Counted from the first letter of the stretch, positions 32,735 to 35,315 are shown. The stretch: 64,000 bases of DNA from an uncultured virus (IMG/VR IMGVR_UViG_3300044641_009778) (IMGVR_UViG_3300044641_009778), one strand, 5' to 3'. A program made the numbers and translations. Notes: a model not told the origin generated them from the sequence alone.

Positions 32735-32826
32735 TGGTGGAGACGGTGGGATTCGAACCCACGGATCGACTTGCGTCAATCGACGGTTTAGCAAACCGCT
32801 GCCTTCAGCCTCTCAGCCACGTCTCC
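32735..32826 (-). tRNA. tRNA-Ser(GCT)
   Basis: Loop TTGCTAA; long variable arm. Confidence 0.9.
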
Positions 32827-33389: not shown

Positions 33390-33476
33390 TGGTGGGTGCT
33401 CTCCGATTCGAACAGAGAAGGTCTGAGACAACAGATTTACAGTCTGCCCCCGATACCATTACGGGACTAAGCACCC
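33390..33476 (-). tRNA. tRNA-Tyr(GTA)
   Basis: GCAGA-CTGTAAA-TCTGT. Confidence 0.85.
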
Positions 33477-34367: not shown

Positions 34368-34580
34368 TTAGCTACGAAATATTCCTACTATGTAAATCAT
34401 CATCAATCCAGCGTTCACACAGATAAGATTGATGTCGCGGACTCGGATGCTCCAGGTCAAATACAACAAGCTACCGAGATTCAACAAATACACATTCAAG
34501 GGATCAATGCGAAAGCTGGTGCAAATCGCCCCGCCGAGCGTGGCTGCTAACGCTGTCCACTTAATAATATCATTTAACAT
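34368..34580 (-). CDS. small three-TM protein
   Basis: Hydrophobic; near-leaderless after promoter. Confidence 0.65.
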   Translation of the reverse strand: MLNDIIKWTALAATLGGAICTSFRIDPLNVYLLNLGSLLYLTWSIRVRDINLICVNAGLMMIYIVGIFRS

Positions 34581-34647: not shown

Positions 34648-34740
34648 TGGCGGAGGGCGGAGGAGTCGAACCCCATCCGCTTTTGGCAGAACCTGGTTTT
34701 CAAGGCCAGTCGCAGGACCATCCCCGCTGCATCACCCTCC
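34648..34740 (-). tRNA. tRNA-Ser(TGA)
   Basis: Loop CTTGAAA; long variable arm; G73. Confidence 0.85.
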
Positions 34741-34744
34741 AAGT

Positions 34745-34774
34745 AAAAACCCCAGATCTTTTGGATTCTGGGGT
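34745..34774 (-). terminator. intrinsic terminator immediately 5' of tRNA-Ser
   Basis: ACCCCAGA/TCTGGGGT stem plus T-tract. Confidence 0.7.
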
Positions 34775-34803
34775 CTTGGTAAAAACGTATATCTGTCGTG
34801 TAC

Positions 34804-34908
34804 CTAGATCCCCCAACCTCCATCCCAGCGTGTATTGAAGCCGTACTGCTCCGAGCCGGGGCAACTTGGCTTAATTAATGCTGGTGAAAGGGCGATGAGT
34901 TGATGCAC
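34804..34908 (-). CDS. putative 34-aa attenuator leader peptide
   Basis: AGGAG-N5-GTG; MHQLIALSPALIKPSCPGSEQYGFNTRWDGGWGI*. Confidence 0.55.
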   Translation of the reverse strand: MHQLIALSPALIKPSCPGSEQYGFNTRWDGGWGI

Positions 34909-34974
34909 GACTACTCCTGATTGTTCTACGTATATATATCTGCTGCTTCTAAGAAACCGCGGTGAGCATAAAAA

Positions 34975-35277
34975 TTATTTTACGGCTCGAATGATGTCCT
35001 GTTGCTTGGCCAGGATCAACGGACTGAAGGCTGCCTTGTAATTGTTCAGCAGATCGTCCGCAGGATCAATCATGAAGATTACGTGGTCAAAGCTGATTTC
35101 AAATTCTTTGTCGGCGGCATAAGGAACCCAGTGAGTAATGTTGATGTTGGCTCGACTGGTTTCCGTGGGTTGGATCAGCACAATGCAGGGGTTCTTTACC
35201 TTGAGATGCGTGGTGGTGTCCACAACCTCGGCAATGAGATCCTCGCCGGTGCTCATGCGAATAAGTTTAACGTCCAT
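34975..35277 (-). CDS. Sm-like conserved T4-type protein
   Basis: VKLIRMSTGEDLIA...WVPY. Confidence 0.75.
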   Translation of the reverse strand: MDVKLIRMSTGEDLIAEVVDTTTHLKVKNPCIVLIQPTETSRANINITHWVPYAADKEFEISFDHVIFMIDPADDLLNNYKAAFSPLILAKQQDIIRAVK

Positions 35278-35315
35278 GATGTCTCCATAGCGGGGCCGTT
35301 GCCGGCCCCGGGTTA

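Follow-up and report, generated by a model that had tools for sequence, protein, structure and literature searches.

Can a phage gate the transcription of its own transfer RNA (tRNA) genes according to the speed of translation? Phage tRNA arrays are usually seen as constitutive cargo, which corrects a mismatch in codon usage or replaces tRNAs that have been cut by host defences. The question is raised by a 64,000-nucleotide (nt) stretch of an uncultured virus, IMGVR_UViG_3300044641_009778 (the whole stretch is referred to here as the window), in which a self-contained element of less than 200 nt, comprising a short open reading frame (ORF) and a terminator-like hairpin, lies directly ahead of a tRNA-Ser(UGA) gene at the head of the tRNA array. 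A sequence-only reading of this locus had recognised the logic of the trp and his attenuators, and this is supported by the conserved frame of the ORF, by competing RNA helices, by a folding switch that exceeds those of shuffled sequences, and by a second group of leaders with covarying base pairs. The element is probably a ribosome-mediated (leader-peptide) transcription attenuator that gates the entry of polymerase into the phage tRNA genes. If this is true, the phage would gauge how fast decoding proceeds and produce tRNA as needed, and leader-peptide attenuation would extend from amino-acid operons to RNA genes, and from the sensing of a single amino acid to the sampling of nearly the whole code.

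Leader, competing helices and terminator ahead of tRNA-Ser(UGA)

All the leader, terminator and tRNA features described here lie on the minus strand. The Shine-Dalgarno sequence AGGAG (34914..34918) is followed, after a 5-nt spacer, by the GTG start codon (34908-34906) of the leader ORF (34804..34908), which comprises 34 sense codons and ends in TAG (34806-34804). The claim that this AGGAG-GTG opens a 34-codon ORF encoding 19 of the 20 amino acids with 30 distinct codons, including all four for Gly, was confirmed in full. Between the ORF and the tRNA gene lies a predicted intrinsic terminator, the hairpin of which (34773-34750) is formed by the arms CCCCAGA (34773-34767) and TCTGGGG (34756-34750) around a 10-nt loop, with a run of five T residues (T5; 34749-34745) directly after the stem. 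By coordinates, 54 nt separate the TAG from the U-run, and the hairpin has an energy of -12.0 kcal/mol without the U-run and -16.6 kcal/mol with the A/U extension. The terminator had been placed a few nucleotides before tRNA-Ser(TGA), and the T-run indeed ends 4 nt before the tRNA gene (34648..34740, with CCA) starts at 34740. No promoter-like site was found in this gap by a sigma-70-like scan, either in the window or in the relative that is described below as B.

At the DNA level, the group to which the leader of the window belongs consists of two sequence types only. The leader type of the window (W) is identical in one IMG/VR contig and one metagenome contig, while a second type (B), which is ~83% identical to W, occurs in the IMG/VR contig L002 and in two metagenome contigs. 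A metagenome scan with the DUF6561 protein encoded upstream recovered copies of the W and B types only. A third lineage, P0001, is known as a protein only, its contig not being in IMG/VR. B shares the Shine-Dalgarno sequence, start, stop and length of W, despite differences at 18 of the 105 nt of the ORF. When the 18 W/B substitutions were placed at random, the frame stayed open in 26% of the permutations, and in 0.13% of the placements it was open with a peptide as similar as observed or more so. The differences are distributed over codon positions 1/2/3 as 6/2/10, as in the neighbouring genes (14/8/38 in the DUF6561 gene and 8/3/18 in a 70-aa gene), while the remaining five frames across W and B contain stops or show less conservative changes. 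P0001 is a 44-aa gene call, of which the last 35 residues align to the leader peptide with one extra in-frame codon, and 25-27 identical residues are kept among W, B and P0001. On the basis of the retained start, stop and length, the substitution pattern and the in-frame insertion of P0001, this short ORF, with its ribosome-binding site and preserved frame, appears to behave as a translated reading frame.

Four segments of the leader RNA can be distinguished. Segment 2 (34801..34822) is the G-rich 3' end of the ORF and takes in the last six codons, the UAG and 4 nt beyond, while segment 3 (34762..34781) extends from the 5' flank of the terminator through its 5' arm and into the loop. The expected pairing of the ORF end with the terminator 5' arm was recovered, with GGGG/UCU/GGUA (34815-34802) pairing with UACC/AGA/CCCC (34781-34769), in a duplex of -15.7 kcal/mol versus -17.0 kcal/mol for the two terminator arms. 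Segment 4 (34745..34756) consists of the 3' arm TCTGGGG and T5, and the terminator hairpin is identical in B. In the untranslated, terminated fold, which is the minimum free energy (MFE) structure of the full-length RNA, the partner of segment 2 is segment 1 (34884..34896; codons 5-9). Between segments 1 and 2, the MFE structures of W and B include a central hairpin (34825..34884; CCAGC...GCUGG and inner helices), the sequence of which is nearly invariant between the two types. The MFE structure thus combines the 1:2 helix with the terminator at full length, and contains the 2:3 helix when the nascent RNA lacks the 3' arm, in W, in B and in four leaders of the second group described below (L036, L040, L043 and L044). 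Segment 2 has two possible partners in every leader, namely segment 1 (near codons 5-8) or segment 3, and the modelled 1:2 pairing would complete a trp-type set of four segments.

The MFE structure of the nascent W RNA contains 17 pairs between 34822-34801 and 34781-34762, which are mutually exclusive with the terminator. By alignment column, 14 of the 20 pairs in this nascent-RNA hairpin hold in B, including 11 of the 17 2:3 pairs, with one compensatory 2:3 pair (C-G to U-A) and with the G:C part of B rebuilt in a shifted register. B also keeps 19 of the 24 pairs of the full-length (1:2) fold by column, although the pairing partners in W and B are partly different. The local hairpin is more stable than expected in both the window (z = -2.3, P = 0.018) and B (z = -1.9, P = 0.041).

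The effect of ribosome position was modelled by partition-function folding of the RNA 3' of a ribosome with its A site at each codon in turn, with the shield ending 12 nt past the codon. The readout was the probability of the terminator core pairs, P(terminator), and in the main version the U-run was left out because it is still in the hybrid when the fold is chosen. For W, P(terminator) was 1.00 without a ribosome, 0.00-0.71 at codons 1-25, 0.59 at codon 26, 0.76 at codon 27 and 0.99-1.00 from codon 28 to the stop. Folding of the alternative structures, which the sequence-only reading had named as a check, thus returned the order terminator, antiterminator, terminator as the ribosome advances. 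B gave a mixed response, with values of 0.02-0.92 over codons 1-26. A W-like switch shape was also observed in six leaders of the second group (L033, L036, L038, L040, L043 and L044). For example, P(terminator) in L040 was 0.98 without a ribosome, about 0 at codons 1-25 and 1.00 from codon 26 to the stop; L033 (1.00 without a ribosome) fell to 0.03-0.34 from codon 3, L043 (1.00) was low only from codon 13, and L044 (0.27) was about 0, and up to 0.18, at codons 1-25, with all three at 1.00 from codon 26 to the stop. Without a ribosome, seven of eight leaders gave 0.98-1.00, with L044 (0.27) the other. The size of the switch, taken as P(terminator) without a ribosome minus its mean over codons 3-24, was compared with that of sequences in which all the RNA 5' of the terminator had been dinucleotide-shuffled. 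None of the 110 shuffles reached the observed size in W (0.86), B (0.50), L033 (0.86) or L043 (0.72), while one of 110 did so in L044 (0.22).

Provided that translation keeps in step with transcription, that the hairpin does end transcription and that stalling alters read-through, all of which we infer, the element would operate as follows. In an untranslated leader, segments 1 and 2 and segments 3 and 4 would pair, and transcription would end 4 nt before tRNA-Ser(UGA). A ribosome delayed within approximately the first 25 codons would free segment 2 from segment 1, allowing it to pair with segment 3, so that no terminator would form and the antiterminated polymerase would proceed into tRNA-Ser and then into the array. 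A ribosome at the last codons or on the UAG would cover segment 2 and the terminator would form. Slow decoding of the leader would thus lead to more tRNA transcription, and fast decoding to shut-off.

The tRNA-Ser(UGA) gene was not called by ARAGORN, and its best Rfam match is tRNA-Sec (38 bits versus a gathering score of 47). It is nevertheless considered a real tRNA gene, since 14 IMG/VR loci keep its exact anticodon arm while their stems carry compensating changes. Our own reading of the sequence gives an 8-bp acceptor stem, a 4-bp T stem, a 6-bp D stem and a 4-nt D loop, an apparent 8/4 'allo-tRNA' shape that would explain both the ARAGORN miss and the preference for the tRNA-Sec model. 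Such (8/4) tRNA-Ser have been reported in phage tRNA clusters (PMC5389517). A second tRNA missed by ARAGORN (33394-33476) has a long variable arm, a GUA (Tyr) loop and a tRNA-Sec-like score of 30 bits. With tRNA-Tyr(GUA) included, the array spans 19 amino acids, with tRNA-Phe not found in the window. A sub-gathering Rfam match to tmRNA (32735-32826; 36 bits) was discarded as an artefact of the long variable arm of the tRNA-Ser(GCU) called by ARAGORN.

A second group of leaders ahead of tRNA-Gln(UUG)

The sequence-only reading had proposed that the ORF-plus-terminator layout be sought ahead of tRNAs in relatives. Scanning with small-ORF peptides from loci that share tRNA-Ser(UGA) recovered this layout in 12 IMG/VR contigs with seven distinct leaders (L033, L036, L038, L040, L041, L043 and L044). 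Each of the seven contains an ORF of 32-38 codons with a TAG stop, and in all six with downstream DNA a hairpin and U-run follow 49-55 nt past the stop, and then tRNA-Gln(UUG). A tRNA-Sec-like tRNA-Ser lies directly after tRNA-Gln in L033 and L044. The TAG stop is shared by all nine leaders for which DNA is available (34804-34806 in the window; 3473-3475 in L002; 1000-1002 in L033, L036, L038 and L040; 997-999 in L041; 982-984 in L043; 1015-1017 in L044), and TAG is the rarest of the three stops among the window's long ORFs (20/107). This conservation could reflect RNA pairing or an RF1-specific, slow termination. Two further candidates were rejected as chance matches: L045, from the motif scan, falls inside a large ORF, and L057, from a scan of genome contigs, is an antisense frame of a 559-aa Flavobacterium gene. 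A tblastn search with the L033 peptide against cultured phages gave no match.

Unlike W and B, most leaders of the second group have promoters of their own. A promoter with 10-12 of 12 consensus positions lies ~35 nt before the ORF in five of the seven leaders (L033, L036, L038, L040 and L044), of which L036, L038 and L040 have two in tandem. By the sigma-70 criteria no promoter was found before the leader of L043, and L041 was outside the scan. Just upstream of the L043 ORF (~855-870) is the octamer TATAAATA, which we take to be the T4 late-promoter consensus. The gap between terminator and tRNA-Gln is free of promoter-like sites in four of the six leaders with downstream DNA (L033, L038, L040 and L044), while L036 has a 9/12 and L043 a 10/12 site there. 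The arrangement of a consensus promoter, a lone 33-codon frame, a terminator and promoter-less tRNAs is that of a textbook attenuator.

The four indel events inside the second-group ORFs are all multiples of three (6, 3, 6 and 3 nt), while those after the stop are of 1, 1, 2 and 17 nt. Substitutions are even over the codon positions, for example 11/10/13 between L033 and L043, and together with the indels in threes this suggests that selection acts on the frame and not on the peptide. The 2:3 helix has 11 pairs, and 93.9% of its 66 cells are paired; sliding the partner by 1-3 columns lowers this to 21-64%. The helix shares 7 nt with the terminator arm and includes two compensatory pairs, G-C to U-A in one sequence and C-G to U-A in two sequences, with a covariation score that was reached by 17 of 500 shuffles. 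A lack of conserved pairing had been named as an observation that would speak against attenuation, and in this group the pairing covaries. The terminator helix is 90% paired, and none of the 500 shuffles reached its covariation score.

Amino-acid content of the leader peptides

The W peptide lacks only Val. Its 33 codons after the start include 29 distinct ones (30 of 34 with the GTG), and Gly is encoded by GGC twice and by GGA, GGT and GGG. This diversity of amino acids is higher than in 33-residue windows of the phage's own ORFs (P = 0.011) and than in random draws (P = 0.017). All ten peptides, namely W, B, the seven second-group peptides and P0001 (counted from its aligned Val), contain 19-20 kinds of amino acid, which is the case in 0.05-1.5% of equal-length windows of the phage's long ORFs. 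When the residues common to two members were kept and the rest redrawn, the observed number of kinds was reached by 0.8% of redraws for L033-L041, 0.8% for L033-L043, 1.1% for L033-L044, 6.9% for L033-W and 0.8% for L043-B. Since so few redraws reach the observed counts, amino-acid completeness appears to be kept as the sequences change.

The sequence-only reading had gone further and proposed that the leader is a general sensor of tRNA depletion, an idea that is plausible and partly supported. The near-complete amino-acid set of all ten peptides fits it, but the codons at which a stall would matter, approximately the first 25, are not unusually diverse in W (15 kinds, P = 0.28) or B (16 kinds, P = 0.10). 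They are more diverse in the second group, with 19 kinds in L044 (P = 0.0001), 18 in L041 (P = 0.003) and 17 in the L033 group and L043 (P = 0.023). The codons of the W leader are matched by phage tRNAs in 27 of 33 cases, which is not significant against a background of 69% (P = 0.08). There is no tandem repeat of any codon in the leaders, and hence no regulatory codon run. Every leader does contain at least one UCA and at least one CAA or CAG, as single codons, within codons 2-25. In the long ORFs of the window UCA has a frequency of 0.42%, which gives P = 0.10 for a single leader; this background is taken from the window and does not extend to the AT-rich second group. In W, UCA is found at codon 8 and in B at codon 17, and both have UCG at codon 19; the tRNA-Ser(UGA) encoded next reads both UCA and UCG. 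Adjacent CAG-UCA codons are present in L033 (931-936) and L043 (916-921), as codons 11-12 in the L033 group and 12-13 in L043, and their order is that of the tRNA-Gln and, in L033, tRNA-Ser(UGA) genes after the terminator.

It is tentatively suggested that the leader probes decoding capacity and is complete by design or, more narrowly, that it is part of a Ser/Gln autoregulatory loop, a proposal of which we remain doubtful. As a complete probe, the leader would keep at least one codon for every one of the 20 amino acids. A shortage of almost any tRNA would then relieve termination, and the tRNA array would be an inducible counter-measure to starvation, to late codon demand or to a host anticodon nuclease. 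In the narrower version, the rare UCA and UCG codons (and CAA and CAG) would report the levels of the tRNA-Ser(UGA) (and tRNA-Gln) encoded downstream.

Competing explanations and comparison with known systems

Several observations weigh against attenuation, and the first concern the position of the leader in its genome. The genes upstream encode the clamp-loader gp62, the translational repressor RegA, Hsp20 and the DUF6561 protein, from which the phage appears to be T4-like. It has no close cultured relative: INPHARED phages gave no near-identity match to the window, and a distant search matched only regA, at ~68%. The public runs containing the stretch are lake and other freshwater metagenomes. 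No recognisable promoter lies ahead of the leader in W or B by the sigma-70-like scan, with B having a 9/12 promoter-like site inside the end of the upstream gene. The leader would thus be transcribed as the tail of a gp62-regA-hsp20-DUF6561 operon, which is also the place for an ordinary last small gene and its terminator. Contigs from RNA runs (X16) cover only 34935-35082 and 35191-35288, with the leader outside. Downstream, two promoters of 11/12 consensus feed most of the array, as the sequence-only reading had cautioned. Both lie on the minus strand: the first (TTGACA-16-TACAAT, 34614-34587) drives the 70-aa ORF and beyond, and the second (TTGACA-17-TAGAAT with TG, 34361-34333) lies before tRNA-Glu and the rest of the array, so that only tRNA-Ser(UGA) strictly needs read-through. 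The 70-aa ORF itself (34368-34580, minus strand), which lies between tRNA-Ser and the rest of the array behind its own 11/12 promoter, is hydrophobic, is conserved in B and has a DUF6552 match of 26 bits (cut-off 27). Between the hsp20 and DUF6561 genes, directly before the DUF6561 ribosome-binding site, is a GC-only 8-bp hairpin (35291-35310) with no U-run on the coding (minus) strand.

For the leader group of the window, the evidence is also thin. The W/B comparison involves two sequence types with one compensatory pair per helix set and has no statistical power, and the substitutions between W and B look as if the peptide itself were selected, an unusual situation for a leader peptide. The model folds RNA at equilibrium while attenuation is kinetic, and when the U-run was allowed to pair, P(terminator) in W was low only at codons 13-14 and 19-22, and in B it was 0.94-0.97 at every position. 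The control terminators were crude, with trimming off by one and a poor choice of core at two sites: three of the five clear ones never lost the hairpin on 5' truncation, while truncation abolished it in 7 of 46 cases for the strongest (-16.2 kcal/mol) and in 28 of 46 for the weakest (-7.3 kcal/mol), compared with 29 of 46 for the window element. An earlier control set, of 18 hairpin-plus-U sites picked mechanically, was too heterogeneous for use. The 1:2 helix of the second group, at 83% paired, has a covariation score that 204 of 500 shuffles reached. Finally, hhalign found no significant similarity between the peptides of the two groups (E = 0.36), and the groups are linked by their layout and a shared tRNA and not by proven homology.

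Some of these observations would also fit an ordinary operon end, with the 34-codon ORF as the last gene of the gp62-regA-hsp20-DUF6561 operon, a leaky terminator and an incidental alternative pairing, and with tRNA-Ser produced by constitutive read-through and RNase P cutting. The missing promoter, the gene-like codon-position pattern and conservative replacements of W and B, and the loss of the hairpin by the weak control terminator are in line with it, and the 2:3 pairing exceeds that of dinucleotide-shuffled ORF ends only modestly (window, P = 0.055; B, P = 0.18). Such an operon end is nonetheless unlikely, as it does not account for a switch size that no shuffle reached in W or B, for the recurrence of the layout behind dedicated promoters with the leader as the sole ORF, for the covariation of the antiterminator helix, or for the conservation of TAG and of the spacing between stop and U-run. 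The even substitutions and preserved frame of the second group likewise fit a leader and not a functional protein.

Alternatively, the product may be what matters, either as a functional micro-protein or as a terminated transcript of ~190 nt acting in trans as a small RNA, with the place before the tRNAs being secondary; a true attenuator could also carry out such a role in addition. The identical residues kept by W, B and P0001 are in line with such a function, as is the stability of the leader structure relative to shuffles (z = -3.09). A population variant (run X3, 851-nt contig) also fits, with 16 listed differences that all fall within 35002-35206 in the DUF6561 gene, 15 of them at third codon positions by our own arithmetic, and none in 34705-34974, which holds the leader and its flanks. 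The invariance of the leader in this variant reflects either strong constraint or a recombination boundary. A precedent exists in Sinorhizobium trpL, for which trans roles of both the attenuator RNA and the peptide are reported (PMC6614838, PMC7298713). Against this, the leader peptide matches no Pfam or PHROG family, and a profile search of 1.84 billion representative proteins found no relative besides P0001, the second match (P0002) being a repeat artefact in a repeat protein with 17 short stretches. Furthermore, the peptide is not conserved between the two groups, and second-group substitutions fall evenly over the codon positions. A primary role of the product is thus regarded as quite improbable.

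Least probable of all is a translation-independent RNA element, that is, a protein- or tRNA-binding switch or a signal for the processing or stability of the tRNA precursor (RNase III, E or P) in which the ORF is irrelevant, since, although the leader folds well and the hairpin abuts the tRNA 5' end, where RNase P would be expected to leave a hairpin-protected upstream 3' end, the frame, length and stop are conserved, indels in the ORF occur only in threes, a Shine-Dalgarno-like sequence precedes the start in W, B and L041, and no Rfam family, T-box included, matches at E <=1 in 34780-34925 or at E <=0.1 in the leaders of L002, L033, L043 and L044, with the sole match near the leaders, to the terminator itself, being weak (E = 0.61 in the window, 0.02 in L002).

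A leader-peptide attenuator, the reading we prefer, can be compared with several known systems. The trp, his, leu, thr, ilv and pheA leaders of enterobacteria combine a short translated ORF, exclusive 1:2, 2:3 and 3:4 pairings and a terminator under the control of ribosome position. The phage leaders share with such amino-acid operon attenuators the leader ORF, the predicted four segments and a stop ~50-65 nt before the U-run. They differ in that their products are phage tRNAs and not biosynthetic enzymes, in that a run of codons for one amino acid is replaced by 19-20 amino acids, in that the stop lies inside or right after segment 2, and in that no Rfam leader family matches them. Furthermore, a stall at almost any of approximately the first 25 codons is predicted to relieve termination.

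The E. coli pheST attenuator has a target in the translation machinery and lies downstream of other genes, from which read-through contributes, but it relies on Phe codons and controls a protein gene. The phage leader resembles it in the type of component under control and in its site downstream of other genes, and differs in having tRNAs as its targets and no tandem repetition of any one codon. T-box riboswitches likewise control genes of the decoding system, by antitermination through the direct binding of uncharged tRNA without translation; the phage leaders share such targets and transcription antitermination, while having a conserved ORF and no T-box match. In the pyrBI operon of E. coli, termination is set by the gap between polymerase and the first ribosome on a leader of ~44 codons, and a close ribosome melts the terminator. 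The absence of an amino-acid-specific codon run is common to both, whereas in the phage a ribosome at the end of the ORF would, according to the model, hide the antiterminator strand and so permit termination.

Phage T4 offers the same gp62/regA context, and its tRNA cluster begins with tRNA-Gln, as in the second leader group. Unlike these leaders, T4 has the 95-aa trna.2 and an AT-rich spacer of 97 nt before tRNA-Gln, where there is no annotated small leader ORF and, by eye, no hairpin with a U-run. A full-text search of the literature, the coverage of which excludes most subscription journals, returned no report of leader-peptide attenuation of phage tRNA genes. The logic of attenuation is known from amino-acid operons; what differs here are the phage tRNA targets, the absence of a codon run and the near-complete set of amino acids.

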